From a virus (lineage: Duplodnaviria > Caudoviricetes), in the IMG/VR virus record IMGVR_UViG_3300042905_004154, positions 1,217 to 65,216 of that record: a stretch of DNA of 64,000 nt. The stretch is one strand, 5' to 3'. Within the stretch, counting starts at the first letter, position 1. Each line of letters begins with the position of its first letter. The notes under the pieces are model-generated. The model searched no databases and was not told where the DNA came from. It worked only from the letters and a program-made list of their open reading frames with translations. Below are positions 3,238 to 55,427 of the stretch, in pieces. Made by a program: the position numbers and the translations under genes.

Positions 3238-3248
3238 GGCGGGTGGTC

Positions 3249-12036: not shown

Positions 12037-12042
12037 GCTGGT

Positions 12043-12135
12043 AGCCTACTCCAGAGCGACGGGAACCGCAAGCGAACGGGCGCGGAAACTTTCGCGCACT
12101 ATTTGTTGGACACCCGACAGGCAACGGGGCATGAT
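12043..12135. promoter_or_regulatory. Divergent promoter pair 1
   Basis: Minus: TTGCGG-17-TAGGCT; plus: TGGACA-17-CATGAT; GAAACTTTC at 12085-12093 between them. Confidence 0.65.
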
Positions 12136-12172
12136 GGGGTGGCAAGGCATTCCGCCGAGCATGGAGCGTTAC

Positions 12173-14535: not shown

Positions 14536-14538
14536 CCC

Positions 14539-19492: not shown

Positions 19493-20188
19493 ATGACTAC
19501 CACCTTCTTCCTTACCCCCTCCGGCGCCGTCACCTACGGCACCCCTCCCGACGGCGCCACCATCATCCCCTACGAGGGGGCCGCGCCGTTCTCCGGCCGC
19601 GTCGTTCTCGCGGCGGCGCTGGCCGTCATCCTCCGCCTGCAAGCCGAGTGGGTACCGACGCAGTGTGACGTGGTGCCTGCCGGGCGCCGGGCCGACCTGC
19701 GCGGAGCCAACCTGAGCGGGGCCGACCTGCGCTGGGCCGACCTGCGCTGGGCCGACCTGCGCGGGGCCGACCTGCGCGGAGCCAACCTGAGCGGGGCCGA
19801 CCTGAGCGGGGCCGACCTGAGCGGGGCCGACCTGAGCGAGGCGGTGGGCGTCGCCACTCCCGAAGAAGAGGAGGCCACCCTCACCGCCGCCATCGCCGCC
19901 ATCGCACGCGAGCCGGCGCTGTGGAATCAGGGCCTGTGGCACGATGCCGGTTACGATGCCGAAGCCGCCCCCGACGTCGGAGCGTGCGGGTCGGCCCACT
20001 GCCTCGCGGGCTGGATGCAGGCGCAGCTTCCCATCGGGCATGAGCTTCGCAAGGTTGATGCACAGTTGGCGGGGACGGCGCTCGCCCCTCGCGCCGCCTC
20101 CGCTGGGTGGTTCTCGTCGGATACGCATCCCGACCTCCAGGCTCGGGTGGACGCTGCGCGGGCGAAGTTGGCGGTGCCCCGTGGGTAA
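19493..20188 (+). CDS. Pentapeptide-repeat protein
   Basis: A(D/N)L(R/S)(G/W) repeats at ~19690-19840; C-terminal [10 protein letters not shown]. Confidence 0.85.
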
Positions 20189-26433: not shown

Positions 26434-27393
26434 TCAAGCATGGACGAGGCCCATTACGTCGCAGTCCGCCGCATCCGACCCGCCGATCGCGTACATCGAT
26501 CGCACGCCAGCGGTCAGGATGTTGAGGCGCTGCCGAGATCGCCCTGTCCTTCGGATGCCGCGGAGCTCCCCGACGAGGTTGTTCGTCGTGTTGTCGCGAT
26601 ACCACGAGGGAATCCGCGCCCACTTGCCGCTGTTGAGCACTCCCATTCCCGCCGCGCTGGAACTCCGCGTAAACTCCCGCACGAGTTGGAGCGAGGTGCT
26701 GGTGCCGGGCTGGAGATACCATGCGTGCGCGCTTCCGTTGCCCGTGTTGTGCCCCCACCACGAGGTGCCCGACGCCTCGAAGCTGGTAAGGATGGCTGTT
26801 GATCCGCTCGTCACGATTCCGTACACGCGACCATCGCTCTCAGCGTCGAGGGAGTCGCTACTGTAGGGGTCGAGCGTGATCGTGCAGAAGCCGTACCAGC
26901 TTGAAGCGCCGACGCGGGCCATGACGCAGATTTGCTCGGCGCATTCGTACACGCAGACGAGGCCGGTGCTGCTGCACGCCGCTGACGCGCGATTGTAGGG
27001 CACGAAGTTGATCCCCGCTCCGAGCGGGTCGCTTCCGCCCGTGCCGTCCCACGTCGTGAGCGTGCCGCCGTTGCTGGAGCACAAGACGTGCAGGGCGTTG
27101 GAGAGGTAGGTGTCGGGGGACTTCATCAGCGGGGTGCGTGCCCCGTTGAACCCGGCCACGATGACCTTGGAGTTGCAGCCGCTTCCGCTCGGCGGGGAGA
27201 GCACACAACGGTCCGTCGGTGCGCCGCCCTTGGTGCTCGACCACGCCCGCCCGGTCCCCGCCGTGCGTGCGCTGCCATCCTCGTAGGTGGTGGCGCCGAG
27301 CGCGGTGTGGATGGCGTCGAGGTAGTTCTCGACGTTCGCCGCGGAGACGGTGACATCTGCGATGCGCCGCCATGTGAGGGTCGTAAGGGGCAT
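26434..27393 (-). CDS. Putative virion/tail structural protein
   Basis: G/S/T-rich beta-type composition; late operon position. Confidence 0.6.
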   Translation of the reverse strand: MPLTTLTWRRIADVTVSAANVENYLDAIHTALGATTYEDGSARTAGTGRAWSSTKGGAPTDRCVLSPPSGSGCNSKVIVAGFNGARTPLMKSPDTYLSNALHVLCSSNGGTLTTWDGTGGSDPLGAGINFVPYNRASAACSSTGLVCVYECAEQICVMARVGASSWYGFCTITLDPYSSDSLDAESDGRVYGIVTSGSTAILTSFEASGTSWWGHNTGNGSAHAWYLQPGTSTSLQLVREFTRSSSAAGMGVLNSGKWARIPSWYRDNTTNNLVGELRGIRRTGRSRQRLNILTAGVRSMYAIGGSDAADCDVMGLVHA

Positions 27394-27396
27394 GTT

Positions 27397-28089
27397 CTAC
27401 GCCTGCGTGACGGTTGAGATTACGTCCATCGAGGACAGGTCGAACGCCTGAGCGTCGAACGCGAACACGGAGAGCGACACGCTGAGCGCGGTCCATACAA
27501 CCACGCCGCCCACTACGACGGGCACGGTCCCCTCGGCGCCGACCGGCAACCGAGTAGGGACACCGCCCCGGCGGATCAAGATGTCCTCGTTCGTCGTGAG
27601 CGCCGACTCCAGCATGTACTGCGTGTGCGGGTCGCCGGCCGCGACGTGAGCCGCGATGCCCGCGGCCGAGGTGCCGACTGCGTCTGCCCCCACGCTCGCC
27701 GCCGTGGGCGCCGTCGGGCTCCCATGGGTGTGGTCCTGGCGCGCGTAGTTCGTGCTCACGCCCACCGCAGGCGCGATACCGTAGGTCGTCTCGCTCGTGA
27801 CCGACACCGCAGGGGTGCCGCTTCCACCGGCCTGCCACGACACGCCCAGTGCCGCCGTCGAGTCGGCCGTGAGCACCTGGCCGTTGCTGCCGACGGGGAT
27901 GCGCGCGTTGACGGTGGAGAAGCCCCACAGGTCGCCCTTCGTCGTCAGAACGGACGCCCACCCCTCGAGGTTCACCGTCGACAGGTCCGTGTGTTGGACC
28001 GTCAGGAACCCGCTGGCCGCGTCGTTGAAGAGCAGCAGGTAGCCGTTCGGTGGCGCTGACGGTGTGTCAACGGAGGGCAGGTAGCGCAT
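27397..28089 (-). CDS. Putative tail fibre protein
   Basis: TTKGDL...RIPVGSNGQVLTADS; ARQDHTH; HVAAGDPHTQY fibre-type motifs. Confidence 0.7.
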   Translation of the reverse strand: MRYLPSVDTPSAPPNGYLLLFNDAASGFLTVQHTDLSTVNLEGWASVLTTKGDLWGFSTVNARIPVGSNGQVLTADSTAALGVSWQAGGSGTPAVSVTSETTYGIAPAVGVSTNYARQDHTHGSPTAPTAASVGADAVGTSAAGIAAHVAAGDPHTQYMLESALTTNEDILIRRGGVPTRLPVGAEGTVPVVVGGVVVWTALSVSLSVFAFDAQAFDLSSMDVISTVTQA

Positions 28090-28095
28090 GGCTCC

Positions 28096-28482
28096 CTACG
28101 CGAGAATCTCGAACGAGAGGACGTAGCTTGCGGTGTTGTCGGCGCCCGCATCCCATCCGCCCACGAGGTAGACGTTGCCGTTCGCGTCGGTGAAGTCCAC
28201 CGCATCGGCAGGCGCGGACGGGTTCACGTCGATCAGGCTGGCGACACCGGTAGCCGACCCCAGCCACACCTTGTTGACCGACGTGGACGCCGCGCCCGTC
28301 AGGTTCACAATGTACGGGGTGAGGTTCGCCGCAGTACCGGCCACCCGCTTGACCTTGACACGGCGCAGGCGGAACTTGACCTGCGATGTGCCGAGCGCGA
28401 TCGTCGTCTCGGTCGACGCACCGCTGGCTGCGGTGGTGCCGACCTTGAACGTGACCTGGGTGCGAGAGACGACGCTGGACAT
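28096..28482 (-). CDS. Putative structural protein
   Basis: Beta-rich 128 aa ORF in late operon. Confidence 0.6.
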   Translation of the reverse strand: MSSVVSRTQVTFKVGTTAASGASTETTIALGTSQVKFRLRRVKVKRVAGTAANLTPYIVNLTGAASTSVNKVWLGSATGVASLIDVNPSAPADAVDFTDANGNVYLVGGWDAGADNTASYVLSFEILA

Positions 28483-29097
28483 TTACGGCACCCGCACGCC
28501 GAACACGGTGATGACGGCGGCGTTGTTTCCGCCCGCGCGAACGGTCACGAAGCGAATGGTGGCGGCCGCCGAGACAGTCCAGAAGGCATCATCGATGGTG
28601 GCCGCGCGAGCCGTTCCGGTGTCCGTGGCGTTGTTCATCGCATCGGTGATGGCGTTGCCGCCGGTGCCGTTGTGCATCGCGATCGAGTTGCCGGCGTTGC
28701 CGGCGCCGCCGGTCTTGGTGTAGACCACCTCAGTGACGCGGAACTTGTAGGGCACGCCGGTGAAGTCTTGGTTGCCAGAGGCTGCGTCCGCGATGGCGAA
28801 CTGCATGACCACCGGGATGCCGACCATCGCCGCGGTCATCGCGCCGGCGGCCGCGGTGGTGGTGTCCTTCGCGACGAGCGCGGAGAGGGTGTTGGCCACG
28901 ACCATCGCCTCGGTGACCTTTCCGGCCCCGATGGTGACGGCGCCCGATGCCGCGATGCTCACGTCGCCGCTGACGCTCTTCCACAGCGGGGAGGACGTGG
29001 CGCCCTGCGCGACGAGCACCTGCCCGGAGGTGGAGCCCTGAAGCGCGAGGGCGCTCACGGCGGCGGGCTTGATCATGCTGCGGCGGATGTTGGCCAT
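28483..29097 (-). CDS. Putative fibre/structural protein
   Basis: GQVLVAQG...VSGDVSIAASGAVTIGAGKVT fibre-like repeats. Confidence 0.6.
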   Translation of the reverse strand: MANIRRSMIKPAAVSALALQGSTSGQVLVAQGATSSPLWKSVSGDVSIAASGAVTIGAGKVTEAMVVANTLSALVAKDTTTAAAGAMTAAMVGIPVVMQFAIADAASGNQDFTGVPYKFRVTEVVYTKTGGAGNAGNSIAMHNGTGGNAITDAMNNATDTGTARAATIDDAFWTVSAAATIRFVTVRAGGNNAAVITVFGVRVP

Positions 29098-29181
29098 GGT
29101 CGGATTCCCCTTACCCGCCGAGCATACCCGAACGGTGGTCGACAGGTGGCAACATAGTGGCGTTTCCGCTATCCTGTTGGC

Positions 29182-29370
29182 ATGGTGGAGCGGAACTACC
29201 GCCGTGGCGAGGACCACGGGAACTCACGCCTCGACGCCGACCAGGTACGGCAGATTCGGGAGGACGCCGCCGCCCACTTTCCCCTTCGCCAGCTCGCCCT
29301 CCGCCACTACGTCAGCCACACCACCATTCAGATGATCGTGAAGCGGAGGACGTGGCGGCACGTTGAGTAG
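29182..29370 (+). CDS. Stand-alone HTH resembling the C-terminal DNA-binding domain of phage HNH endonucleases
   Basis: RGEDHGNSRLDADQVRQIR...LALRHYVSHTTIQMIVKRRTWRHV; TATCCT 6 nt before ATG. Confidence 0.65.
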   Translation: MVERNYRRGEDHGNSRLDADQVRQIREDAAAHFPLRQLALRHYVSHTTIQMIVKRRTWRHVE

Positions 29371-29373
29371 GCG

Positions 29374-32300
29374 CTACTCCGGCGCATCGCCGCTCGTGAT
29401 CAGGCGCTCGCCCTCGGCCCCGCGGGAGATGCCGTACTGCGGCAACTGCGCCTTCACCCACGCAGTCCGTTCGCCCACTTCCTTCAGCCCAGCCATGTTC
29501 TCCACGGTGGGCGTAGAGAACCCGAGGGACTGGAGAAGGATGCGAGCAACGTCCGGCGCGTAGGCCTCGCCCTTGCTGCCTTCGTAGGTCAGCGCCTGCC
29601 GGTTCAAGTCGGCGATGCCGGGGAACGACCCGATCAAGGCCGCCACCTCAGGGCGGAAGGTGTAGACGACGGTGCCGCTCTTGTCGTCAATCTTCACCCC
29701 CGGCGTGGCGTCTCGCCAGTCCCCGTCGGCGACACCCGATCGCACCATGAAGCCGGCGATGGCATCGCGCACAGCGTCCGCCGTCTTGGGAATCGACTGG
29801 GCCACCCGCTGCGGGGACCGGCCGGCGGGGTCCATCGACGCGATCAGCGACCCGAGGGTGGGCGACGACCGAGGGTCGAGCATCGGCGCGAGTGCCTCAC
29901 CCGGCGTGTTCATGCTCAGCCAGTCACCCGAAACCCCAAGAGTCTTCAGACCGATCGCACCGGCGGCGAGGGAGCCCGCCGTCACCATCGAGAACCACTC
30001 CATCGACCCGGCGAGGCCAGAGTGGGGGGCGACCGCGTGCCACGTCTCGGTGGGCACCACCTTCCCCTCGGTGGTGACCGGGTGCTTCATCCGAACCTGC
30101 GTCCGGTCGCGGAGGTAGGACCGCGCCATCTGCTCGCTGTACCACGGGGACAGGTAGGCGCGGATGATGTCCACGTCGTCCGGCTCGAGCCATGCCTCCT
30201 TGGGGATGGTGGGGTCTTTGGCCCACTCCATCGTCACCGGCACCGTAGGGTTGCTGCGAAGGAGGATCGCGTTCCAGTTCTCGGGCGTGAGGTCGGGGTT
30301 GACCGCCTCCGCCAAGGCGCGGAACCGCCTGAACCGGTCGTAGTGCTTGACCTCGTCCGCGAGCATGAAGGTGTTGAGAATGCCTACGTCGTCCCCTTCC
30401 GTGGTGGGCGCCTCGGCAGCCATCTCCTGCGCCTTCTCGCCGACCTGGTGCGTGACCCTCAGTCGGTACGCGCCCATCGGCGAGGCCACCGAGTTGATGA
30501 CCAGACGGTTCATCGACTTCTGCCACGACCAGAACGGGAGAAGCACCTGACGGAGCCAGTGCTGCTCCCCCTCGCTCAGGATGGCCCGGTAGTCGAACAG
30601 CGCCTCAACGGTTGCGCGCCCGGCCTGCGCCGGCTGCATTCCTTCCTCGATCAGGACCGTGTAGAGGGCGAGGCGCTTCCGGAGCGACACCGTCTCCGCG
30701 ATCGAACTCACGCCCTCGGCGGGAACCCGGAACAGCTTACTGAGTCCGTTCACGGACTGCACGAGCTCGGCCCGGTCGAAGCTGTCGTACACGCCCGTCT
30801 CGATGGCGGTGCGGCGCAGTTCGCTCGCCTTCCACACCCTGTCGCCGATGGTCACCAGTTCGTCGCCACCGTCCATGATGGTGCTGATCTCGACCCGCAT
30901 CGCGCCCATGCCGAGCATGTTGGACACCTTGCCGGCGAGCGTCTCCCCGACCGCACCACCGGCGTGGATCAACTTGGCGATGGCGCCCTTGTTCTTCCCG
31001 GCAGCGTAGGCGAGGAACACGCCGAGTCCGAAGTCCACACCGCCCTGCACGACCGACCGAACTACCGGCGCGACGGCATCACCGATCACCGCCCGCGCGA
31101 CGTGGCCGGCAACGCTCGGGATCGCGGACCGAAGGATCGCCACCACCGAGGAACCCTCGGCGCGAACGGCAGTCTTGAGCGCCTGCTTCATTCCGACCGC
31201 GATCATGATCTGCTCGGTGTCGCCGGGCATGTTGTTGAGCATGTAGCCGGGCTTGCTGGCGAGTACCCCGCGGGTGTTGGCGAGCTTCCACACGCTCAGC
31301 ATGTTGTTCCCGCCGTAGGTCTGCGGGGTGAACGTGCGCGCGATGGCGCCCGTCATGCGCTCGCGGACCATCCGCGGAACGTAGATTTGCTCGGTCATCA
31401 CGGCGTTGTAGAGCCCGATCCGCTCGGCGGCCCTCGCGTCCTGGCGAGCACCCGGAACGCCAACCTTGCCGCCAACCTGCACATCCTTGCCGCCGATGCT
31501 CTCGATCTTGGGAGCGTCCAGCGCCCCGGCGCCCACCATCCGGTTGGAGGCGACGGCTCGCTCCACCATGGTCGCGGGGCTGAGCGCCCGTATCGTCTCC
31601 TCATCGAACCGGCCCCCCGCGAGGGCACGGATCGCATCGGCGTCCTGCTTGGTGAACACGATGCCGTCGCCGAAGCCCTTGTTGAGCAGCACGACGTTCT
31701 CGGCCTGCGCGGCGATCCAGCCCGTGGTGATCCGAGTCCACGCCTCGGGCACTTCGCCGTCACGGGTGAACCGCTTGGCGGTCGTGTGCAGTCGCTCCAT
31801 GAACTCGGCCGCGTCGATCTTGCCGGCGCGGGCGGCCTCGAGCGTGGACTCAAACGCCTTCCAGAACGGTAACTTGGCGCCATCCTGCTCTGGGCGCCCG
31901 GCGATTCCGGCTCCCGTGAGGCTCTCGAGCGTGCTCTTCGCCTGCATGTCGGTCGAGAGAAGCGCGTCGAGGTACTGGTCCACGTCTGCCTTCTGCACGT
32001 TCACGAGGTTCGTGAACACGTCGAAGCGGTCCATGCCGGTGGTCAGGAGCCCCTTGCCGGCGCCCCCTGGCTTGCCCCGTAGGAAGTCCGCCGCCTCGTC
32101 CAGAGACTCCATCTTGCCTACGTCGCCCGCGATGGCGTCGAGCCGGCGCTCGGCGGCGAGGGTCCACTCCCGCGCCTCCTTCGACAGCCCCTCCTTCGCC
32201 CACGGCGCCATCTCGTTGCCGCCCATGAAGACCAACTTGACGGCTCGAACCGCGCCGTTCTTCAGGTCGCGTAGCAGGGTGGGGTTGGCCTTCACGCCCC

Positions 32301-35300
32301 GGAACCGGCTCGCGCTCTCGCCGAGGAGAATGCTCGGGGCCGCCGAGCGAAGCGGGCTGACGCGCCGAGTTGCCTCGGCCGCCTCGGTCGCGTAGGTCCG
32401 CATCAGGGCGTCCACGTCGCCCATCATCTGCGGCGTGATCTGGTCGACCGGTGCCGTCGCGAGCACCTTGTCGACCGCCGCCTCTGCGCGTGCGAGGGTG
32501 CCCTTGCCGACGAGGGTGCCCTCGAGCTGGAGAACGGCCGCGTCACGGAAGGCGGCGCGCTGAGCCGGCGTGACCGCAATCCCGCCGTTCATCACCTCGC
32601 GCACTGCCTTCTCCAGCCGCGGAGTGACGGCCTTGAGCGCCTTCGCCAACCGCTCCCCGGTGAACATCCGGCGGGCAGCGTCTGCGGCCGCTGCCGCGTC
32701 GACCAGGGCCTTCGTCGCCGGCGTCGGGGGCGTGGACCCCACCGCCTCCACGAGCGCCCGCACCGCGCCCTGTGACGCTGCCGGGGCGATGGCCTCCTGC
32801 GCGCCGAGGGCGAGCTCGCGTGCCGTGGTGGCCGCGCTGTCGAACAACCGCTCCGCGTAGGCTGCAGCCTCGGCCGGCGTGAGCTTGGCCGCGTTGGGAC
32901 CGGTCGACGTGGCGAGCGCGGCCACACGACGCAGTCCTTCCGCGAAGCCAAGGGCGGCGAACTGGCTGCTGGCACGTTCCGCCCGCGCCTTCTGCTCGGC
33001 CTTCTCCGCGCCCTCCAGCGTGCCCTTCATCGGGGTGGCGCTGTACTGGACGGAGCCGGGCGACTTGACACGGGCGGGCGGGGCGTAGAGGAAGTCGTCG
33101 CTCTTCTGGGCGACCTGTGCTGCATCATCCAACAGCGAGCCGAACACTGCCTTGCTCAACGCTGGCGGAACGCCGTTTCCGATGATGGTGGTCGCGAGCG
33201 CCGCATTCGTTGGCAGAGGGTAGTCGTCGGGAAGCCCAGTCAGACGCGCCAGCACCTGCGGCGTGACACGCTTCACCCGCCCGTCGGGCAGGATGATCCG
33301 ATGAAGTTCGCCGGGGGTGGCCTTGATGGTGGGCGCCGCACCACCCGCGAAGGCGTGTGGCACGGTCGTACTCCCAGCGCTTCCGCCCATCACAAGGAGC
33401 GGCTTCTCGACGCGATCGGGATCAATGCCGCGGGCCTTCAGACGCTCGCGCGCCCACGGGGGAACGGGCGTAGCGTCTGGTAGGTCGTCCACGAGGTCTG
33501 CCACGGTGCCGTACCAGTCGACATGCGGCTGCGCGCCGCGCGAACCGTGCGTAGGGACAGGGGGCGGCGGAAGCGTCCCGCCCTTGACGGCCCGCAACAG
33601 AAGCCGCTTTCGGCTGGTTGGGGCGCCGAAGTCGGCGGCGTCGTACACGAGCGCGTCGAAGGTGTAGCCCTCCTCTCGAAGCGCATCCTCCACGAGGCGC
33701 ATGGCCTCGGAGTTCTGGTAGCCCTTGACGTTCTCCAGCGTGAACACGCGAGGCTTCGTCTTTCGGATGGCGTCGGCAGTAGCCTGGGCGGTGAGGAGGT
33801 CGAGGGGCTGCTCGCCGTCTTCCGTTACGACCTTGGCGGCGCTGAAGTTCTTGCAGACCGGCGAGGCGTGCAGGTAGTCCACGTCGCCGGCTTCCCCGAT
33901 GTCGACGTTCCGAACGTCGTCAATGCGGACATGCCCGCCGTGAGCCGCCTTGTAGTGCGCGCCGATGTCCGCGTTCGCCTCGACCGCGAACACCGGATCG
34001 ACCTGTCCGCGCAGGCCGACCTCTACGAGCCCGCCGCCGCTGAACATGGTGGCGGTGCGGGGCTTGCCGCCAGCGCCGCGGAAGGGCGTGGGACCAGAGC
34101 CCTTCTGGCGCGCGTACAGGGCGTCCGCCGCCCTCCGCCCAACCACGCCCTCGATCTCCGGCACTACCCGCGGGTCCATGCCCGCCTCTGTCAGCGCCGC
34201 CTTGTAGGCCTCGACCTCCTTCTGGGCGCCCCCCACCTTCGGGTGCTCCACCAGCCACGCAAAGTCGGTGGTGGGCGACTTCGCCTGCACCGCCATGGCG
34301 GCGTCACGAACGCGCGTGGCCCATGGCGACGTGTCCGACGCACGGATGACCGTCGCCGACCCACCACCCTCGCGGATGATCGTCTGCGTGTTGGAGAGAA
34401 CGTGGCCGAGGGCGTCCGTGTCGCTGAACCCGAGAATCTTCGCCATGGTGGCGACGAACGAGTCCCACAGGGAGCGAGACGACTCGCCGCCCGTGCCGAG
34501 TACGATCTCACCGTCCTTGACCGTGACCTTGACCTCGCGCAGAAGCGCCTGGAACTCGGGCGACGACAGCGCCTCTGCCACGAACTCGTCGGTGTTCTTG
34601 AGCCCGTAGATGCGGCCCATGTCCTCGATGCCGGGGATGCGGCGCACGAGCTCGTGCAACTGCCCGAGGTTGCGAACGGCCCTCTGGACCGCAGGCGAGT
34701 ACAGGTGCGGGTTCGTGAGCGCGTTGTGCGTGATGACGTGGGCAGCCTCGTGAACCATCGTCTTCGCGGTGGCGTTCGTGGCGAGGTCGATCACCTCGAC
34801 GCCGGGGTCGTAGCGACCGACCGCTGAGCCGGGCAGGGCTACGTCCGTGCGAACGACGACCGCAGCGAGGTCATCGCCGCGAGTCTCGGCGAGGTGCTTG
34901 GCGACTGCCGCAACGGCCTCGTCGCCACTCTCCGCTGCTGCCGTCGCCACGTCCGCGAGCACGGTGTTGGCGCGGCCGGGCTTGGGCGCCCAGTCGGACC
35001 AAATCTCGAAGCCCTCCAAGGGGCCGCCTTCCCTGACCGCTGCTTCTGCCTCGGCGCGGGTGGCGAACGTCGTCTCGATGGCGTCCTCGGCCTCGCCAAT
35101 GGTCTTGCCGCGGTAGCCGACCTTGATGGGGAGGGCGCCTTCGGCTACCTCGAAGAGGTCGTCGCCGGGATCGAAAGGACGAACCTCACCAACTCCTTCG
35201 GCGACATCGACTCCCGCTGCTTCTCCATCTGGACCCAGTGGTCGTCCAGATGATCCAGCGCGTCCACGTCGCTCGGCCACAACTCGCCGCGCGGCTTCAT

Positions 35301-38300
35301 CGAATGCGATGTCGGCGGTTTCTCGGGCACCGAGTTCTCCATAGAGCCTCTTCTCGTAGTACCACAGAATGGCCTGGATGTCCGCAAGCGACGTGGGCAT
35401 CCCCTGCTTCTTCAGGATCGCCTGCGCTTCCATCGCGGCCTCGCGCATGAACTTCCGGTCTGCGCCGCCAGTCGGGGCGTCGGCCAGTTCGTCAAAGGCC
35501 GCCTTCCACACGGTGTTCGCGGCCACCTCCGCCTCGGTGCCCTCCTTGAACCCCTTGGCCTCGTAGGACTTGCGGAGCGGAACGGTGGCGGACAGGACCG
35601 CATCATCCGTCATCGCGGGGTCGCCAAGCAGTACCTTCATGCGGTCGAGCCCCTCACGGGTGGGGCGCTCCAGCAGGGTTCCGCGATACCGGTTGAACGT
35701 GCGCGACCACCACCGGTCCATGGTGAGGTAGCCCTCGGCCCCCATCAGGTTTGCGTAGAACGCTCCGAGCTTCGGCCCGAAGAGTGACGCTGCCGTCGGA
35801 ATACGCGCGCTCACCAGCTCGCCCGCAATCTCCTTCCTCTTGGTCGCCCGTGCCTGCTTGTTGTACTGACCGACGGTGATCTCATCGAGCAGCCGCTTGA
35901 AAGCAGGGGCGCCGCCCTCGTCGTGCAGTTCCTGAATCACGGCGAGCGACTTGTCGATGCTCGACTGCCGGACATGGCCGATGGGCGTGGAGAACTTGCC
36001 GGTCTTCCGGAAGTTGTCGTAGATGTCCGCCGCCATCTTCATGTTCGGCATGACCTTGTTGCCGTCAGAGGTGACGGCCACCAGCGCGGTGAAGATCATC
36101 CTCGCTTCTGGGTCCGACGCGAGCTCTGGGAACTCCTCCGCCATCGTGTCGATGGCACGCTGATACTTCTCCGAGTACCACCCAGCGCCCGACCGTCCGG
36201 CCTGCGCCTTCTCGAACGCGACCTCCTCCGCCATCCACTTCGCGATCTTGCGGCGCGCGGCAGGGCTCTGGTCCTTTGCGTCGATCAGTCCGTACTTCTT
36301 GCGTTGACGAGCCTCCAGTGCTGCGGCCACCTCGCGCGTCGTGTACTTCTTCTTGCGTGGGGGCAAGCCGAACTTGGCGAGCGTCTCCTCGCCCTTTCGG
36401 ACCGTCACCGTCTGGTACAGGTGCCGCGGGTCTTTCGGGTTCCACGTCCCCACGTTGCCGGTGGCGGACTTGACCTGGGTGGGCTCGAAGGCGACCCAGT
36501 GCTCGGTGTCGGGGTTGATGCCGGGCATGCGCTGCCCGAACTTCCGGCCCGCGCCGAACTCCTTGTCCGCACTGATGACGATGCCGTCGAAGCCCATCTC
36601 GCGGTAGACATCCTGCAGGAACTGGCCGGGGGAGGAGCGCTCACCGTCCGCGTACCAGTCCGAGCCAACGCGGCGCACGGCCTGCTCGAGGTCCGCCGCG
36701 GTGAAGCCGTCGGGGTCATCGAGTACGGAGAGCACCTCGTCGGCGAGGTTGTCGTCGTCGTAGTCGCGGGCCACGCGCTGGATGGCCTCCTTCGCCTGCA
36801 CGCCGAGCCCCTCCTCGCCGAGGAAGTCCTCCCCATCTTCCGACCACTTCGTCTCGATGTCGAAGCGCGTCACCTTGCCGGGGCGCAGGTCGACGGGCTT
36901 CTTGATGGCGGCGTACAGGGGCAGAACGGCGCCGCCGTGCTGGCCCGCAATCTGCTGCTCGGCCTTCCACCGGGTCACCTCGTCCAGCAGGCGCGGACCA
37001 GCCGACACCGACTCGGGGTCACCGACGGCGGCCCGGAGCACGTCCGCGTCCGCCTTTCGCTCAGGGTGAGCGGCCGCCCACTCGTCCACGAGCGAGCTGG
37101 CTTCGTCAGGGTCGTCCCAGACATCGACCATCTCTTCGTGGCGACTCTCGATACGGCTCTTGATGTCCGCGCCCTGACGGGTGGCGTAGTTGGCGCCCAC
37201 ATCCTCGGCGGAGGAGGTCAGGTAGATACCGCGGCCGTGGTGGTTCTCGACGTTGGCGAGGGTGGGGTTGAACGCATCGAACTCGTGCGTGGTGCCGTGG
37301 TAGAGGCGCTTCGGGGCGCCCTCCTCGTCCACGGCCTTGGTGCCCTCGATGAAGCGCTTGAAGGCGGGCGTGTCGGTCTGGTCGCCGGGGGTGCGCCGAA
37401 CCGGAGCCCCCCCTCCCTCCGCATACAGCACCCCACCGCTCGCTCGCTTCGCTGCTGCGGCCGGCTGGGCCGCCTCCACCGCCGCGCGCTCAGCCTGCGT
37501 CCGAACCCGAGCGGCGTCCGCAATGGCATCCTTGGCGCTCTGCGTGAGCGGTTTCGTCATCTGCTCGGCCTCGTCCGCCGCCTTCCTCAACGCCTCAACG
37601 ACCTCGTCCTCCGTGGCGCCCTTCGCGATCAGGTCGCCGAAGTACGCCGCCTTCTTGTCCGCGTCGACCGCCACCGTCGACACGTCCTTCTCCGCCCGCA
37701 GCAGTTTCTCTTCCTTCGACACTCCGATGGGGGCGCCCGCGGCCTTCGCCCCGTAGACCAGGAGCTCGAGCGGGCCAGGGGTGAGCAGGCTCGCGACGAA
37801 CGCACTGGCCCCCACATTGAAGTTGAGGGACTTGCCGCCCACATACTCGGCCGCGTCCGTCACCGCGTCGGGAGCGCCAACCGTCTCGCCCGCCGAACGA
37901 AGCAGACGACGCCCTGTCCCCTCGACATCGGCCTCGCTCTTCGCGCCGAAGTAGTCCCGGCGCGCCCGGATGGACTCAGGGGACATCGGAACGGTGATCC
38001 CGGCGATCTGACCGTAGTCGTAGGTGGGCAGCTCCTCCCCCGGCTTGTCGCCGAACAGACCACGGAGAAGGGCGGCTGGGAGCCCGGTCGAGACGATCGC
38101 ATACTCGGTCGACCCACCAATGGCGTCCAGTGCGTAGGACGGCAGCGACTGCACGCGGGCGACCGGCTCGCCCGCCTCGTTCACGCCGATCACTTCCGCC
38201 GTCGGCTTGAAGGCGTCGATCACGCTGGTGGGGTCGCGGTCCGCAGGCATCAGACCCTTGGGGCCCCACATTCCGACCGTCTTCAGGGTCGCCAAGTCCT

Positions 38301-39294
38301 CCATTGCGTCTTGCTTTACGGCCAACCGGTCAGGGTGGTCCTCGGGGAGGTCCGCGAGTTTCTGCCCCTTCGGCCGGAGCGCATCGACCTTCGACAGCCG
38401 GTAGCGGTAGTAGCGCTCGTACTGCGGGTCCGATGCGTTCACCAGCGCGATGCCGAGGTCTTCCAGCGGCGCGTCCTCGGCCACGCCCATCGCATTGCGA
38501 AGCCCCACGTCGTTGATCAGCCGCTCCGCCCGCGCGCGAACGTCGGACCGAAGGGCGGCCGTAGCCACCTTCGTTTCCGGCGACGGCATCAACTCTTTGG
38601 CAAACTTCTTCTGGACAGGCTCCACCTGGTCCTTGAAGAGGGTGCGCGCGAGCAGTGCCACCACAGGGTTCGTGTGGGGCAGGGGCAACCCACCCGTTCC
38701 GATCGCTTCGACGGCCTCGACCTCCTTCTTGGTCGGCTTGGGCAGGACCGCCCTCTCCATCTCGCGCTCAGGCGGCCCGTACACCGGCCCAGTCGGCGTG
38801 CCGACCTCGCCCAGCGTGCTGGACTTCGGCAGGCTGGCGGCGGCGTCCTGTAGTTCCCGCACCGTCCCGAACGTCGGCAGCGCATCCACGTAGGCCTGTG
38901 CGGCTTCCGGGGTGGCGCCTGTGTCGATCTGCTCGTAGTAGCCCCACGGCATCGCCGGGTCGCCTTCGTAGGGCGCGGTGACGGGCTTGGGCCCCGCCTT
39001 CTTGACCACCACGACCGGGTCTGCAACCTTGGGGGCGGACGGCGCGACACGCACGGGCGCAGGCGTTGCCACAACTGGTGCCGGGGCGGGCTTCGCGGCA
39101 ACGACCGGCTCCGGCTTCAGCCCGAGCAGTCGATCGCGCCGGCTCTGCCCCGAAGGCGCAGGCGCTGCCTCGGCAACGGGTTCCACCACCGGTTCGACCG
39201 TTGGCTCGACCACGGGCGTGGCCACGGGCTCATCGGACGCAGGAAGCCCAAGGAGCCTCTGACGACGTGCTTCCTTGCTGGCTGCGTCACTCAT
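29374..39294 (-). CDS. Giant (3306 aa) polyvalent putative ejection protein: ART-like, HhH-glycosylase-like, zincin and C5-MTase domains
   Basis: LYHGT...GRGIYLTS...FDGI...VAFEPTQVKSATGN; GWY...TSDG...GPKLGAFYANL..TMDRW...QAILW; HEAAH...EFVAE; FSGGG, SPVC, ENV, RKR, GNGVPP; last of the internal-virion-type genes. Confidence 0.85.
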   Translation of the reverse strand: MSDAASKEARRQRLLGLPASDEPVATPVVEPTVEPVVEPVAEAAPAPSGQSRRDRLLGLKPEPVVAAKPAPAPVVATPAPVRVAPSAPKVADPVVVVKKAGPKPVTAPYEGDPAMPWGYYEQIDTGATPEAAQAYVDALPTFGTVRELQDAAASLPKSSTLGEVGTPTGPVYGPPEREMERAVLPKPTKKEVEAVEAIGTGGLPLPHTNPVVALLARTLFKDQVEPVQKKFAKELMPSPETKVATAALRSDVRARAERLINDVGLRNAMGVAEDAPLEDLGIALVNASDPQYERYYRYRLSKVDALRPKGQKLADLPEDHPDRLAVKQDAMEDLATLKTVGMWGPKGLMPADRDPTSVIDAFKPTAEVIGVNEAGEPVARVQSLPSYALDAIGGSTEYAIVSTGLPAALLRGLFGDKPGEELPTYDYGQIAGITVPMSPESIRARRDYFGAKSEADVEGTGRRLLRSAGETVGAPDAVTDAAEYVGGKSLNFNVGASAFVASLLTPGPLELLVYGAKAAGAPIGVSKEEKLLRAEKDVSTVAVDADKKAAYFGDLIAKGATEDEVVEALRKAADEAEQMTKPLTQSAKDAIADAARVRTQAERAAVEAAQPAAAAKRASGGVLYAEGGGAPVRRTPGDQTDTPAFKRFIEGTKAVDEEGAPKRLYHGTTHEFDAFNPTLANVENHHGRGIYLTSSAEDVGANYATRQGADIKSRIESRHEEMVDVWDDPDEASSLVDEWAAAHPERKADADVLRAAVGDPESVSAGPRLLDEVTRWKAEQQIAGQHGGAVLPLYAAIKKPVDLRPGKVTRFDIETKWSEDGEDFLGEEGLGVQAKEAIQRVARDYDDDNLADEVLSVLDDPDGFTAADLEQAVRRVGSDWYADGERSSPGQFLQDVYREMGFDGIVISADKEFGAGRKFGQRMPGINPDTEHWVAFEPTQVKSATGNVGTWNPKDPRHLYQTVTVRKGEETLAKFGLPPRKKKYTTREVAAALEARQRKKYGLIDAKDQSPAARRKIAKWMAEEVAFEKAQAGRSGAGWYSEKYQRAIDTMAEEFPELASDPEARMIFTALVAVTSDGNKVMPNMKMAADIYDNFRKTGKFSTPIGHVRQSSIDKSLAVIQELHDEGGAPAFKRLLDEITVGQYNKQARATKRKEIAGELVSARIPTAASLFGPKLGAFYANLMGAEGYLTMDRWWSRTFNRYRGTLLERPTREGLDRMKVLLGDPAMTDDAVLSATVPLRKSYEAKGFKEGTEAEVAANTVWKAAFDELADAPTGGADRKFMREAAMEAQAILKKQGMPTSLADIQAILWYYEKRLYGELGARETADIAFDEAARRVVAERRGRAGSSGRPLGPDGEAAGVDVAEGVGEVRPFDPGDDLFEVAEGALPIKVGYRGKTIGEAEDAIETTFATRAEAEAAVREGGPLEGFEIWSDWAPKPGRANTVLADVATAAAESGDEAVAAVAKHLAETRGDDLAAVVVRTDVALPGSAVGRYDPGVEVIDLATNATAKTMVHEAAHVITHNALTNPHLYSPAVQRAVRNLGQLHELVRRIPGIEDMGRIYGLKNTDEFVAEALSSPEFQALLREVKVTVKDGEIVLGTGGESSRSLWDSFVATMAKILGFSDTDALGHVLSNTQTIIREGGGSATVIRASDTSPWATRVRDAAMAVQAKSPTTDFAWLVEHPKVGGAQKEVEAYKAALTEAGMDPRVVPEIEGVVGRRAADALYARQKGSGPTPFRGAGGKPRTATMFSGGGLVEVGLRGQVDPVFAVEANADIGAHYKAAHGGHVRIDDVRNVDIGEAGDVDYLHASPVCKNFSAAKVVTEDGEQPLDLLTAQATADAIRKTKPRVFTLENVKGYQNSEAMRLVEDALREEGYTFDALVYDAADFGAPTSRKRLLLRAVKGGTLPPPPVPTHGSRGAQPHVDWYGTVADLVDDLPDATPVPPWARERLKARGIDPDRVEKPLLVMGGSAGSTTVPHAFAGGAAPTIKATPGELHRIILPDGRVKRVTPQVLARLTGLPDDYPLPTNAALATTIIGNGVPPALSKAVFGSLLDDAAQVAQKSDDFLYAPPARVKSPGSVQYSATPMKGTLEGAEKAEQKARAERASSQFAALGFAEGLRRVAALATSTGPNAAKLTPAEAAAYAERLFDSAATTARELALGAQEAIAPAASQGAVRALVEAVGSTPPTPATKALVDAAAAADAARRMFTGERLAKALKAVTPRLEKAVREVMNGGIAVTPAQRAAFRDAAVLQLEGTLVGKGTLARAEAAVDKVLATAPVDQITPQMMGDVDALMRTYATEAAEATRRVSPLRSAAPSILLGESASRFRGVKANPTLLRDLKNGAVRAVKLVFMGGNEMAPWAKEGLSKEAREWTLAAERRLDAIAGDVGKMESLDEAADFLRGKPGGAGKGLLTTGMDRFDVFTNLVNVQKADVDQYLDALLSTDMQAKSTLESLTGAGIAGRPEQDGAKLPFWKAFESTLEAARAGKIDAAEFMERLHTTAKRFTRDGEVPEAWTRITTGWIAAQAENVVLLNKGFGDGIVFTKQDADAIRALAGGRFDEETIRALSPATMVERAVASNRMVGAGALDAPKIESIGGKDVQVGGKVGVPGARQDARAAERIGLYNAVMTEQIYVPRMVRERMTGAIARTFTPQTYGGNNMLSVWKLANTRGVLASKPGYMLNNMPGDTEQIMIAVGMKQALKTAVRAEGSSVVAILRSAIPSVAGHVARAVIGDAVAPVVRSVVQGGVDFGLGVFLAYAAGKNKGAIAKLIHAGGAVGETLAGKVSNMLGMGAMRVEISTIMDGGDELVTIGDRVWKASELRRTAIETGVYDSFDRAELVQSVNGLSKLFRVPAEGVSSIAETVSLRKRLALYTVLIEEGMQPAQAGRATVEALFDYRAILSEGEQHWLRQVLLPFWSWQKSMNRLVINSVASPMGAYRLRVTHQVGEKAQEMAAEAPTTEGDDVGILNTFMLADEVKHYDRFRRFRALAEAVNPDLTPENWNAILLRSNPTVPVTMEWAKDPTIPKEAWLEPDDVDIIRAYLSPWYSEQMARSYLRDRTQVRMKHPVTTEGKVVPTETWHAVAPHSGLAGSMEWFSMVTAGSLAAGAIGLKTLGVSGDWLSMNTPGEALAPMLDPRSSPTLGSLIASMDPAGRSPQRVAQSIPKTADAVRDAIAGFMVRSGVADGDWRDATPGVKIDDKSGTVVYTFRPEVAALIGSFPGIADLNRQALTYEGSKGEAYAPDVARILLQSLGFSTPTVENMAGLKEVGERTAWVKAQLPQYGISRGAEGERLITSGDAPE
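35145..35342 (-). CDS. Candidate nested (overprinted) 65-aa gene inside the giant ORF
   Basis: MENSVPEK...LWPSDVDALDHLDDHWVQMEKQRESMSPKELVRFVLSIP; AGAGG SD-like motif; host-frame GC3 collapses over this interval. Confidence 0.55.
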   Translation of the reverse strand: MENSVPEKPPTSHSMKPRGELWPSDVDALDHLDDHWVQMEKQRESMSPKELVRFVLSIPATTSSR

Positions 39295-42092
39295 TGCCGT
39301 ACAACTTCACGCGCGCGACGAAGAGCGGCAACGCGAAGTTCATCTTTCTGCCTCCGGCCCTCCGCTTCGAGCTCGGCGGCGAGGTCGCGCACTTCACTCC
39401 GGCCGGCGATGGCTGCTCGCTCGGCTGCTGTGGCCGCATCACGCTCAGCCTTGATCCGGTCAGCCTTGGCGCCCTCGACGGCGGCGAGGCCTGCCTCTTC
39501 CAACTCGGTGCCAAGGTCGCGAGCCTCACGGCGGGCCACGGTGCCGGAGCGCTCCGCCGCGGCAGCCTTCCTCTCGCGCTCAGCCTTCGCAGCCGCAACA
39601 GCGCCGGCGCCGGCGCCCTCCAACTCGCGCTCATGCTCCGCCAGTTCTCGACGCGCCACGATAGCGGAACTCTCTGCACCCCGAGTTGCCGCAGCGTCTG
39701 CCTTCATCCGCTCCCCACGAACGGCATCCACCGCTGCGAGGCCCGGCTCCTCCAACTCCCGCCCGAGGGCGCGCACGGCCGCCCGATCTCGCATTCCCTT
39801 GATGATCTCCGCATCCCGCTTCGCCTTCTCGGCGTCGACTGCCCAGCGACCGGCGATAGCGAGGTCTTGTCCCTCGGCCTCCACGTCAGCCATCGTGATC
39901 TTGGCCGCCTGCTCCGCCTTCTCAGCCGCCACTGCGCCAGGTGCCGGGCGCTCCTCTGGCACCGTGGCGAAGTCGTCCACCACGCCATCCAGCGGGGATG
40001 GGCCCATCTTCCGGCGCGCGATGACCTTCGCACGGTCCGCGTCCTTCATGTACGCCTTCTCGTCCTTCTTGAACGCGGGCGAGTCCGTGACGGCTGATCG
40101 GTCGTTCGGGTCTTCGTACACGATGCCGCGCTCGGCTGCGTCCCGCTCGTGCATCCGGCGGGGGACCGCACTGCGCTCCTCTCGGCTCATCGGCGCGTCC
40201 GCGTAGAACTCGGCCTCGTCCTTCTTGAACGTGGGCGAGCCCGTGACGGGGGGGGACTCGTCGCCATCCCGATAGAGAGCCGTGGGGGTGCGCGGCCCGA
40301 TCCTCACGGGCGGCTCGTCCTTGGGCGCCATCTCGGCCATGATCTGCCCCGTGGGCCGACCCTCTTCGCCGCGCTCGCCGAACCCGTCTGGGTCGTTCGA
40401 CTTGTCGGTCGTCTTCGGCCGCTCCGCGACCGCCTTCGTCCGATCCACGACATCGTCCGCTTCCGGCAAGTCCTCTGGCTTGATGTCCGGCTTCTGCTTC
40501 GCGTACCCCGCGTACTTCAGCGAGGACACGTCGCTGTCGACCTGCCACGCCGCATCGGCGTTCGCGCGGCGCAGGGTGACGATCGACCCGTCCGGCTGTC
40601 GGATGTGGGCGACCGTGTCGGGGTCTTCACCATAGGTCGGCAGGCGCCGCTTGCCGGCGATGACCACCTTCGGGGGGAGGGGCATCAACAGGTCTTCGGC
40701 TTCCGGGGTGAACGATTCGTTGTTCAGGTCGATGGGCCCACCCTCGAGGATCGCACCCTTGCTGAGCGGAGCCATGCCCTTGAACCCGAGGGGGCGGGGG
40801 GCCGCCTCCGTCTCTCCAGCCTCCACGTCTGCCGTTCGCTTCGCATCGGCGGCGTACCGCTCCTCGAGCGACTTCGACAGCCAGCGTCCGGCCGCGTCCT
40901 TCGCGGGGGTCGTGGTGCCCGCCGCGAGGTCGAGGTACTCCACGCTGCCGTTCGGGTTGACGGCCCACACCGACATCAACTTCTTGTCGTTGATGCCACT
41001 GCTCACGAACATCTGCGGGCCAGAGTTCCCGCCAACCACCTCCACCTCGTCCTCGAAGTCGCCGCCGAACCGGTTGACCGAGTGCTTCATGCCGCGCTGC
41101 CGGATGATCTCCAGCAGCATCCGGTCCGTGTCCTTGCCGGGAACGAAGCCATTGCTCTCCAGCGAGCCGAGGTCGCCGAACCCGTGCTCCTTCGCCCACC
41201 GACGCAGGCCAGGGCGCTTCACCATGTCGCCGATCTCGTCGTCGGTCAGCCCGTACCAGCGACCTTCCTTCACCGTGGCTACGTCGCCACCGGCCACCCC
41301 CGCCATGAGCTCGGAGAGCTCCTTCTCCAAGGCGCTCGGAGCGCTGTCCGGCCGAATGACATCGTCCGCCGTGATGTTGGTCGCGAGGATCGCGTCGTTC
41401 TTGATCTTCTCGAGGTCCGGCTTCGTGAGGCTCCCCGTCTCGATCTTGGAGATCAACGCCATGTTCGCGGAGTCGTCCCGGCCCTCCTGCGTGATGCCGT
41501 CGAGGTAGGCCTGCCACGCTTCCTCACCGATGAGTTCGCGCAACTGCTCCGGCTTCCACAGCCCGAGGTCGAGGACGTGCTGGGTGAGCCACGGCCGCTG
41601 CTTGGAGTCAAGCGGAAGCGCCGCCGTGTCCATGAGGTTGGTGAGGATCGTGGGCTTGGACGCAAAGGCATTGGTATAGGAGCCGGGGTCGCCAGCGTTC
41701 TGGTCTGCGCTCTGGCCGGTCTTCTTGATCCAGTCGCGGAACAGCGCCTCGCCGCTCGCCATCTTCTTCCCTGCGGCGCCCGCGCCCGACGCGGCGCGCA
41801 TCGCTGTGGCGAGCAACCGCTTGTCGGCGTTCGACAGGCTCACCTCGCCCGCCGAGTAGCGGTCGTAGATTTTCTGGATCACATCTGCGCGCTTCCGGGC
41901 GGCCTTTCCCTCCTCCTCGAAGCGGCGCTCCCACTCCTTGATGTCGGCCGCCTCGCGGCTCTTCTCCAAGACGGAGCGGTACTCCACGAGGCTGCGGAGG
42001 ATCGCCACCATGTCCTTCGGCTCGGCGCTCGACAGCATCGACTGCATCTGCGCCTTGAAGCCAGAGGCGGGCATCGTTTCAGGGGTGGCCAT
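39291..42092 (-). CDS. Putative internal virion/ejection protein
   Basis: 933 aa, Ala/charged helical, internal repeats; between nozzle-region genes and the giant protein. Confidence 0.6.
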   Translation of the reverse strand: MATPETMPASGFKAQMQSMLSSAEPKDMVAILRSLVEYRSVLEKSREAADIKEWERRFEEEGKAARKRADVIQKIYDRYSAGEVSLSNADKRLLATAMRAASGAGAAGKKMASGEALFRDWIKKTGQSADQNAGDPGSYTNAFASKPTILTNLMDTAALPLDSKQRPWLTQHVLDLGLWKPEQLRELIGEEAWQAYLDGITQEGRDDSANMALISKIETGSLTKPDLEKIKNDAILATNITADDVIRPDSAPSALEKELSELMAGVAGGDVATVKEGRWYGLTDDEIGDMVKRPGLRRWAKEHGFGDLGSLESNGFVPGKDTDRMLLEIIRQRGMKHSVNRFGGDFEDEVEVVGGNSGPQMFVSSGINDKKLMSVWAVNPNGSVEYLDLAAGTTTPAKDAAGRWLSKSLEERYAADAKRTADVEAGETEAAPRPLGFKGMAPLSKGAILEGGPIDLNNESFTPEAEDLLMPLPPKVVIAGKRRLPTYGEDPDTVAHIRQPDGSIVTLRRANADAAWQVDSDVSSLKYAGYAKQKPDIKPEDLPEADDVVDRTKAVAERPKTTDKSNDPDGFGERGEEGRPTGQIMAEMAPKDEPPVRIGPRTPTALYRDGDESPPVTGSPTFKKDEAEFYADAPMSREERSAVPRRMHERDAAERGIVYEDPNDRSAVTDSPAFKKDEKAYMKDADRAKVIARRKMGPSPLDGVVDDFATVPEERPAPGAVAAEKAEQAAKITMADVEAEGQDLAIAGRWAVDAEKAKRDAEIIKGMRDRAAVRALGRELEEPGLAAVDAVRGERMKADAAATRGAESSAIVARRELAEHERELEGAGAGAVAAAKAERERKAAAAERSGTVARREARDLGTELEEAGLAAVEGAKADRIKAERDAATAAERAAIAGRSEVRDLAAELEAEGRRQKDELRVAALRRAREVVRQ

Positions 42093-42637
42093 TACTTCCC
42101 CTTCTGCTTGTTGAGGTAGTCCAACTCCGACCCCTTCGCGGACGGGGCCTTGATCGCACCCGTCGCCTCGCCTGCCGCTTCTTCGATCGGCTTGAACACG
42201 CTCGCCACATCGGCCTGCGTCTGCTCAGCCCGCTTCGTGACCCGGCCGAGCGCGTCCAACTTCAGTTGCCGCGCCGACTGTGCCGCCATGCTCTCCACCC
42301 CGGCCCGCGTGCTGCCGGCCGTCTTCTCTGCATCGCCGGCGATCTTCTGCCCGGAGAGGTCCGCGGTGCCGAACCCGCGAGCCGCGCTCTGGCGGGCCGA
42401 CTCTGCGCGCTGAGCCTGCGCCTGGTTGCGGGCGAGCTGGACCGCGTCCTGCGTCATCTGCTCCTTCTGCCCGCGGGTCGGCCCGAACTCGTTGCGCTTC
42501 AGAGCGTCGATGTCGGCGGTCGCTTGGCGGTCCTCGGCCTGGCCCTCGGCGGACAGCTTGCGCGCCACGATGCCGCCGAGCGCCCCAACGGTGCCGGCGC
42601 CTGCCTTGACTGCAGATGCGATGAGGAGAGGATTCAT
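42092..42637 (-). CDS. Putative small ejection (pilot-like) protein
   Basis: N-terminal Gly/Ala hydrophobic segment then Gln/Ala coiled coil. Confidence 0.55.
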   Translation of the reverse strand: MNPLLIASAVKAGAGTVGALGGIVARKLSAEGQAEDRQATADIDALKRNEFGPTRGQKEQMTQDAVQLARNQAQAQRAESARQSAARGFGTADLSGQKIAGDAEKTAGSTRAGVESMAAQSARQLKLDALGRVTKRAEQTQADVASVFKPIEEAAGEATGAIKAPSAKGSELDYLNKQKGK

Positions 42638-55388: not shown

Positions 55389-55427
55389 CGGACGGCTACT
55401 GACGGACGGCTACTGACGGACGGCTAC
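55384..55427. repeat. 3 x 14-bp tandem repeat ACTGACGGACGGCT
   Basis: Exact copies at 55384, 55398 and 55412 between convergent stop codons. Confidence 0.9.

Follow-up and report, generated by a model that had tools for sequence, protein, structure and literature searches.

Why would a tailed phage encode, in its late gene block, a single protein of 3306 amino acids (aa) in which four enzyme-like modules follow one another, and at what stage of infection would such a protein act? The gene in question, P0001, lies on the minus strand (29374..39294; GC content at third codon positions, GC3, 0.86) of IMG/VR record IMGVR_UViG_3300042905_004154, a Caudoviricetes contig of 65,216 bp in the linear class with an estimated completeness of 76%. 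We analysed bases 1217-65216 of this single contig, a stretch of 64,000 nucleotides that we call the window and whose coordinates are used throughout. The gene is a member of the published class of polyvalent, or ejection, proteins. Its predicted product very probably serves a podovirus-like phage in genome ejection, as a polyvalent protein in which a conserved scaffold carries a swappable array of four enzyme modules. What is new is the assignment of a glycosylase fold to one very common cargo domain; the other three modules are of recognised types.

BLAST against 60 long relatives placed the first module at aa 628-960, the second at 961-~1350, the third at ~1414-1646 and the fourth at 1726-2055, between an N-terminal scaffold that reaches ~620-669 and a C-terminal scaffold at 2064-3306. 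The final limits combine this comparison with custom hidden Markov models. From the start of the protein, all on the minus strand, they give the N-terminal scaffold (aa 1-625, 37420..39294), an ART-PolyVal ADP-ribosyltransferase (ART; Module 1, aa 626-960, 36415..37419), and an all-alpha, cluster-less domain of predicted helix-hairpin-helix (HhH)-GPD fold that is a divergent relative of DUF7178 (Module 2 or M2, aa 961-1353, 35236..36414). There follow an acidic linker predicted to be disordered (aa 1354-1420, 35035..35235), a zincin-like metallopeptidase (Module 3 or M3, aa 1421-1671, 34282..35034), a C5-cytosine DNA methyltransferase (MTase; Module 4, aa 1729-2063, 33106..34110) and the C-terminal scaffold (aa 2064-3306, 29377..33105). 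The linker has a predicted local distance difference test score (pLDDT) <50 at residues 394-420 of the M2 model, and the net charge over aa 1354-1433 is -13. A sequence-only reading of this DNA had proposed four back-to-back modules here, and its limits differ from ours by only a few tens of bases. All the motifs that it quoted were found in the translation: LYHGT at 664, GIYLTS at 689, FDGI at 902, VAFEPTQ at 934, GPKLG at 1173, TMDRW at 1191, HEAAH at 1515, DEFVAE at 1569, FSGGG at 1751, SPVC at 1811, ENV at 1854 and GNGVPP at 2039. The profile and search results given below place these modules beyond chance resemblance.

Two of its domain calls, ART and DNA methylase, were made good by profiles that exceed the Pfam cut-offs. 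Module 1 matches PF18760 (ART-PolyVal) with 70.5 bits against a cut-off of 31.2 (E 3.3e-19). Its residues H666, Y691 and D903 form the H-Y-D triad that characterises the ART-PolyVal clade as described by Iyer et al. 2017 (PMC5512222); among 24 relatives the histidine is kept in 21, the tyrosine in 15 (otherwise tryptophan or histidine) and the aspartate in all. An acidic insert of ~190 aa (aa ~715-900) divides the domain between Pfam profile position ~53 and its C-terminal half. Module 4 matches PF00145 (DNA_methylase) with 106.1 bits against a cut-off of 22 (E 3.3e-30), over profile positions 4-322 of 324, and its alignment with M.HhaI (E 4.7e-6) keeps the Pro-Cys nucleophile as P-V-C1814. 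This catalytic Cys1814 (codon 33853-33855, minus strand) is the sole cysteine of the 3306-aa protein. A relative, L110, likewise retains its MTase nucleophile as its one cysteine, so the MTase appears to be under selection for activity in both.

Module 3 carries the HExxH motif H1515-E-A-A-H1519 (34738-34752, minus strand) and a third ligand, E1570, in N-T-D-E1570-F-V-A-E. Its relatives were obtained by an alignment-based scan of viral contigs, with three of the 28 loci (L077, L079, L095) left out of the alignment (A4); no relative of near M3 length was found among 8000 candidates, nor did a single-sequence scan of viral contigs return any. Across the 26 aligned sequences E103, H106, N154, E157 and F158 (M3 numbering) are invariant and H102 almost so. 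The resulting pattern is HExxH followed by N-x-D-E-F-V-A-E, and HExxH occurs in the translations of 24 of the 25 relatives. The M3 model shows the three-strand sheet (66-70, 80-83, 88-92) and the helices (97-114, 155-164) of a zincin core. The M3 profile matches 9sfn_G, an ‘internal virion protein’ (E 3.5e-23), and 8vb2_A, the ‘tetrameric ejection protein gp48’ of Pectobacterium phage PhiM1 (E 6.3e-16), with further matches to gp10 (23sg_S, E 3.1e-6), a virion RNA polymerase (E 1.3e-5) and anthrax lethal factor (E 1.3e-3); HExxH and the downstream Glu are retained in the four phage proteins matched. No curated peptidase family emerged: Pfam gave no family at E ≤ 10 over aa 1331-1728, the best Pfam match of the M3 core was Tox-MPTase4 (E 0.3), the relatives gave only weak SprT-like, DUF6782 and ATLF matches, and Foldseek against PDB returned nothing at E ≤ 0.001.

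The zincin call of the sequence-only reading thus agrees with both profile and fold, and M3 is the zincin-like metallopeptidase that PMC5512222 describes as fused to N4-like virion polymerases. That article also proposes that the zincin processes polyvalent proteins, and M3, which had been listed among four effectors, is more probably a domain for processing or one native to ejection proteins. In three of six other proteins that have both, the zincin lies directly upstream (<150 aa) of a C5-MTase, as it does here (P0012, P0013, P0014 and L110 are among the proteins concerned), an adjacency that is only suggestive of a linked pair.

What, then, is Module 2? With good confidence we assign it to the HhH-GPD superfamily as a divergent domain with its catalytic Asp intact. 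M2 is encoded at 69 IMG/VR loci, of which 13 (L005, L006, L013, L033, L038, L041, L042, L044, L057, L058 and L063-L065) were removed from the alignment (A2) as duplicate or partial. The 63 aligned sequences are 28-60% identical to the query. Numbered within the module (add 960 for the position in the giant protein), their invariant residues are S116, N124, G213, K215, G217, F219, N222, G225, T231, M232, D233, R234, W235, R238, R242 and G245; D233, which is D1193 of the giant protein (codon 35716-35718, minus strand), is identical in all 63. The AlphaFold2 model built from this alignment (pLDDT 90.9, predicted template modelling score, pTM, 0.88) has an all-alpha fold that turns into a disordered tail at residue 394, and shows the two-lobed architecture of EndoIII, MutY, Ogg and AlkA. 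In it, helix 207-212, the hairpin G213-P-K-L-G217 (G1173-P-K-L-G1177 in the giant protein), helix 214-223, the loop M-G-A-E-G-Y and D233 at the start of helix 234-244 follow one another; the 20 residues from hairpin to Asp match the helix-hairpin-helix, Gly-rich loop, Asp signature of the superfamily. In the wide VIA structure search all 23 top rows were HhH-GPD glycosylases or their structural kin, a match of moderate strength. M2 contains no cysteine and hence no Fe-S cluster, and it is probably monofunctional, since Phe1179 occupies the place of the lyase lysine of bifunctional enzymes. Its net charge is +12, whereas the other modules are acidic or neutral.

The domain is very widespread. 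A query of M2 and M3 together matched 1944 representative proteins at E ≤ 1e-3 and 379 at E ≤ 1e-30, most of the matched M2-bearing proteins being 2,000-4,500 aa long, and in all 150 listed matches the best-matching stretch lay within query residues 1-466, that is, in M2. At E ≤ 1e-10, where 1509 proteins matched, M2 is present in at least 1,509 protein clusters at 50% identity, nearly all within giant phage proteins. Cellular genomes rarely hold it: the species genomes scanned gave 13 loci, mostly on contigs of metagenome-assembled genomes, plus one Polynucleobacter isolate. The only Pfam family with any signal on M2 is DUF7178 (PF23802), at 21.1-21.8 bits, under the curated cut-off of 27; the match (aa 961-1330) spans profile positions 60-142 of 193. 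DUF7178 is found at E ≤ 0.01 in 30 of the 63 M2 relatives, the relatives P0009 (86.7 bits) and P0061 (27.3 bits) exceed the cut-off, and the family is annotated on 14-33% of the members of the closest ESM-Atlas clusters. It is a family without an assigned function, and the open-access and bioRxiv literature searched does not mention it. A match of the M2 profile to a histidine-phosphotransfer protein, the only one found among PDB sequences, is at chance level (E 0.092) and was discarded.

Compared with the known HhH-GPD glycosylases (EndoIII/Nth, MutY, Ogg, AlkA, MagIII, AGOG), M2 is longer (~390 versus ~210 aa), only 7-14% identical, and set apart by its G-P-K-L-G hairpin, by the Phe at the lyase-lysine position and by its residence within giant phage proteins. 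We tentatively suggest that M2 and DUF7178-like domains are HhH-GPD DNA glycosylases without an Fe-S cluster, that they make up a very large family not recognised before, and that tailed phages carry them in the capsid and inject them with the genome. Several results count against reading M2 as a glycosylase. PF00730 (HhH-GPD) does not match M2 at E ≤ 10 nor any of the 63 relatives at E ≤ 0.01, and Foldseek against PDB gave nothing at E ≤ 0.001. Alignment of the M2 profile with E. coli EndoIII (hhalign) produced a single local match to EndoIII 108-148 that is not significant alone (Prob 0.07, E 0.69), although it pairs D233 with D138, N222 with N123 and F219 with the lyase lysine K120. The fold kin also include proteins of non-glycosylase chemistry, DUF2419 and PaMx11 gp46. 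The sequence-only description of an HhH/EndoIII-glycosylase-like module accordingly survives in its fold and in its hairpin, Gly-loop and Asp signature, and fails by the Pfam model. PF00730 yielded no candidate across the whole 65-kb record either, while all 14 control genomes were positive.

These kin raise the possibility, which we consider unlikely, that M2 has the glycosylase fold and does not excise DNA bases, acting instead in hydrolysis of free nucleotides, as in DUF2419/Qng1-like queuine salvage, or in PaMx11 gp46-like transfer onto a modified base. A Qng1-like variant might act, for example, on a modified nucleotide or on an immune signal of the host. Among the weak Foldseek rows those of highest probability were indeed DUF2419 (0.54), followed by archaeal AGOG glycosylases (0.35-0.41). 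Yet 20 of the 23 top fold rows are DNA glycosylases, and the invariant G-P-K-L-G hairpin, the many invariant Arg and Lys residues and the charge of +12 suit binding to a DNA backbone. The gp46-like version would further lead one to look for hypermodification genes, and neither a hydroxymethylase nor a kinase for thymidine hypermodification was found among the ORFs (open reading frames) scanned, in a scan that was not exhaustive and a record that is 76% complete.

HhH motifs bind DNA independently of its sequence, and the fold match is moderate; M2 could on these grounds have lost its chemistry while keeping the fold, and serve as a non-catalytic domain that only takes hold of the incoming DNA end or steers it. 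We think this improbable. All 63 sequences, down to 28% identity, have the same Asp at the catalytic position, and the conserved block of S116, N124, N222, D233, R234, W235, R238 and R242 exceeds what binding needs.

The sequence-only reading had also remarked that a C5-MTase next to a glycosylase-like domain is not a standard combination. It is unusual, only one of 158 other M2-bearing giants having both. The two domains are not adjacent here, however, and a functional pair that methylates and then excises is rejected as a general rule by the same count: no conserved pair is involved, and two cassettes that are independent of each other have, as rarely happens, met by coincidence.

Cassettes they do appear to be. 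The N-terminal scaffold has a Pro/Ala-rich start followed by a conserved region of ~520 aa common to two related giants, P0003 and P0004, and gave no Pfam family above cut-off. The motif R-R-x-R-L-L-G-L occurs twice within aa 1-65 (39100-39294) and also in the P0003 and P0004 consensus; it could act as a signal for packaging or for targeting. The C-terminal scaffold contains a conserved core (aa 2623-3178, 29761-31428, minus strand) with the motifs P-F-W-S-W-Q-K and E-T-G-V-Y-D-S-F, for which there was no Pfam match in 35 sequences and no PDB sequence match. P0003 (2453 aa) is 66% identical over aa 1-669, 40% over M3 and 77% over aa 2064-3306, and lacks ART, M2 and MTase. P0004 (2800 aa) has only both scaffolds in common, the C-terminal one at 60% identity. 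The core was found at 40 viral loci, of which six (L106, L118, L120, L124, L125, L131) were left out of the scaffold alignment (A6) and the module inventory; each of the remaining 34 has it as the C-terminal part of an open frame of 1,400-4,100 aa. Together with P0001, P0003, P0004 and P0014 these make 38 proteins with the C-terminal core. M3 occurs in 17 of them and MTase in three; phmmer detects ART in three, with L133 added by Pfam, and P0001 alone has M2. In L110 the order of modules differs (M3-MTase-ART). L113 (4970-12223) and L121 (4142-11893) carry an N-terminal Peptidase_M23 or Phage_lysozyme2 and a GNAT-like domain in place of ART and MTase; these Pfam results come from 14 of the 34 giant frames, those that are 5'-complete and within the size limit.

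Seen from the cargo, the same independence appears. Among the 158 other M2-bearing proteins of at least 1500 aa in the pool of relatives compared, 28 have a similar ART, two have M3, and none has this scaffold; none of the 69 IMG/VR loci encoding M2 carries the N- or C-terminal scaffold of this protein. Because relatives keep both scaffolds while the middle is exchanged, the modules are true cassettes, and the swapping that the sequence-only reading expected among homologous giants is real, as BLAST and the module inventory of scaffold relatives both indicate. Among INPHARED phages, none of 53 matching records covers at least 80% of the scaffold.

Is the giant protein ejected with the DNA? It is encoded as the last and largest of three consecutive candidate ejection genes, ahead of fibre-like genes. 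The small one (181 aa, 42092..42637, minus strand) precedes the middle one (933 aa, 39291..42092, minus strand), whose stop is overlapped by the ATG of the giant gene. Downstream, at 26434..29217 on the same strand, are genes of 244, 128, 230 and 319 aa, of which the 230-aa gene is tail-fibre-like (phrog_9851 tail fiber, E 1.1e-7). T7-like and N4-like podophages arrange their ejection genes in this order of small, medium and giant, followed by fibres; sizes for N4 and DEV are given in PMC11445570. The 128-, 230- and 319-aa genes keep their place after the giant in seven related contigs (L101, L110, L111, L126, L133, L135, L137), upstream synteny is retained in L099, and in the cultured Limnohabitans phage DC33 (L139, PQ492659.1) a 3125-aa M2-bearing protein likewise comes after 203- and 562-aa genes. 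The taxonomy line of the DC33 record reads Inoviridae, but its 39-kb genome has a podophage-like structural block and the record is probably mislabelled.

The strongest new argument comes from cysteine, which is nearly excluded from these three products. The giant protein has one in 3306 residues (binomial P 1e-16 for the shortage) and the 933- and 181-aa proteins have none, versus 132 in 10,863 residues (1.2%) in 27 other ORFs; cysteine is at ≤ 0.1% in 182 of 195 related giants. Such suppression has been described for three ejection-operon proteins of Schitoviridae and related to passage through the periplasm (Lokareddy et al., PMC11445570). A single cysteine, retained as the MTase nucleophile, indicates a protein that crosses an oxidising compartment while its MTase is kept active. 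Gene order, cysteine exclusion and the homology of M3 to solved ejectosome proteins thus lend the proposed ejection indirect support, which is how much of the sequence-only claim of an ejection protein stands.

Three results weigh on the other side. The 933-aa neighbour has no Pfam, PHROG or PDB match, including in a profile search of PDB. A Kyte-Doolittle scan of the giant protein in 19-aa windows found none at or above 1.5, so a membrane-spanning role is not indicated. Scaffold profiles (A5, A6) and phmmer against PDB gave nothing outside M3 and no likeness to solved ejection proteins, and M3, being mobile, does not by its ejectosome homology identify the scaffold. One might on this basis see the giant as an external tail or baseplate-like component, or as a non-virion protein of a late operon, but we find this very unlikely. 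The cysteine exclusion is confined to three consecutive genes, as in the published ejection-operon signature, and the position of the gene is conserved; the N-terminal wall hydrolases of scaffold relatives parallel the transglycosylase of T7 gp16, and a fibre on the outside would have no use for enzymes that act inside the cell, such as MTase and ART.

Most improbable of all is that the modules are decaying, inactive passengers of past domain shuffling, as the split ART and the sub-threshold Pfam scores of M2 and M3 might hint, given that the catalytic motifs are all intact, that the sole cysteine is the MTase nucleophile here and in L110, and that by BLAST the modules are 64-81% identical to the copies in other giants.

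How might a polyvalent ejection protein of this kind work? The N- and C-terminal scaffold, in the place of T7 gp16 or N4 gp50, carries the central array. The giant protein would be packaged in the head and exit by way of the tail, either before the DNA or together with it, alongside the 181- and 933-aa products. The zincin may then cut the polyprotein at disordered linkers inside the cell, or may work in maturation, releasing the effectors. The ART, with its H-Y-D triad, would modify host targets, and the MTase would methylate the entering phage DNA against restriction. M2 would bind DNA via its hairpin and flip a base, and Asp1193 would cleave an N-glycosidic bond.

The known systems offer close parallels. 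Polyvalent proteins are giant multidomain polypeptides that join unrelated enzymes, with zincin metallopeptidase and ART-PolyVal domains as hubs, and are predicted to be packaged and injected with the DNA and released by zincin autoproteolysis (PMC5512222). The protein studied here is like them in joining domains of at least two disparate predicted activities in one ORF, in bearing both hub domains and in being phage-encoded beside virion genes. The methylase modules named in the main text of that article are N6-adenine methylases joined to a helicase, whereas the present protein combines a glycosylase-fold module with a C5 methylase that has no helicase. Neither glycosylases nor C5 methylases are mentioned in that main text: the terms ‘glycosylase’, ‘endonuclease III’, ‘AlkA’ and ‘base excision’ are absent, and ‘cytosine’ appears once, in the references. 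In the open-access and bioRxiv literature searched we found no link between polyvalent proteins and glycosylases, and HhH-GPD appeared with phage ejection only in unrelated work.

T7 gp16 bears a transglycosylase, according to the PhiM1 paper. Relative to the T7-like tetrameric ejection protein (PhiM1 gp48, PDB 8VB2; T7 gp16), the giant is 2.6x longer, carries enzymes predicted to act in the cytoplasm and is similar only in M3. N4 gp50 and DEV gp71 are ejected virion RNA polymerases of ~3,400 aa encoded after small and medium ejection genes, all nearly Cys-free, with a zincin-like motif (PMC11445570). The giant shares the gene-size order, the scarcity of cysteine and the zincin motif, and its M3 profile matches a virion RNA polymerase chain. 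Unlike N4 and DEV, it has no detected RNA polymerase domain, and its cargo is ART, glycosylase-fold domain and MTase. For the MTase and ART cargo there are precedents in P1 DarB and T4 Alt, both delivered by the virion: DarB is a DNA methyltransferase that shields the DNA as it comes in, and Alt is an ART whose targets are proteins of the host. DarB differs in being an N6-adenine methylase fused to a helicase, and Alt in being a single-domain protein of another ART clade (PMC5512222).

A phage strikes first with its polyvalent ejection proteins, and their cargo tells which host systems are hit before phage genes are expressed. The assignment of M2 gives a testable function, of N-glycosidase type and with a named catalytic Asp, to a DUF that is among the commonest cargo of uncultured phages. 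If M2 and its kin are indeed injected glycosylases, they would be an unrecognised class of effector with DNA bases as targets within seconds of the start of infection; they might, for instance, damage the DNA of the host or strip off base marks used in defence. Base excision by injected enzymes would then be a new theme in the conflict between phage and host, and one that could supply new enzymes for DNA editing. The one retained MTase cysteine, for its part, is a clean natural marker in an otherwise Cys-free protein of 3306 aa.

The wider setting is that of a phage distant from all cultured phages, its terminase being at most 29% identical to that of any of them. By PHROGs, the late block on the minus strand reads, in the order of transcription, large terminase (55424-58018), portal-like gene (52956-54584), unassignable structural genes, the 181-aa, 933-aa and giant genes, and the genes of 244, 128, 230 and 319 aa. 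Nothing in this block was recognisable as a tape-measure or tail-tube gene. The large terminase is 864 aa long, yet the terminase match spans only residues ~111-633, leaving N- and C-terminal extensions outside it. Among 27 further ORFs in the window, 25 gave no match to any Pfam family.

The early region holds a 231-aa pentapeptide-repeat protein (19493-20188, plus strand; PF00805, E 8.8e-21). Pentapeptide-repeat proteins can mimic DNA, and this one may be a further anti-defence factor. At 12017-15435 on the plus strand, genes for an SbcC-like ATPase, a RecE-like exonuclease and a RecT-like annealing protein lie consecutively and make up a phage recombination module.

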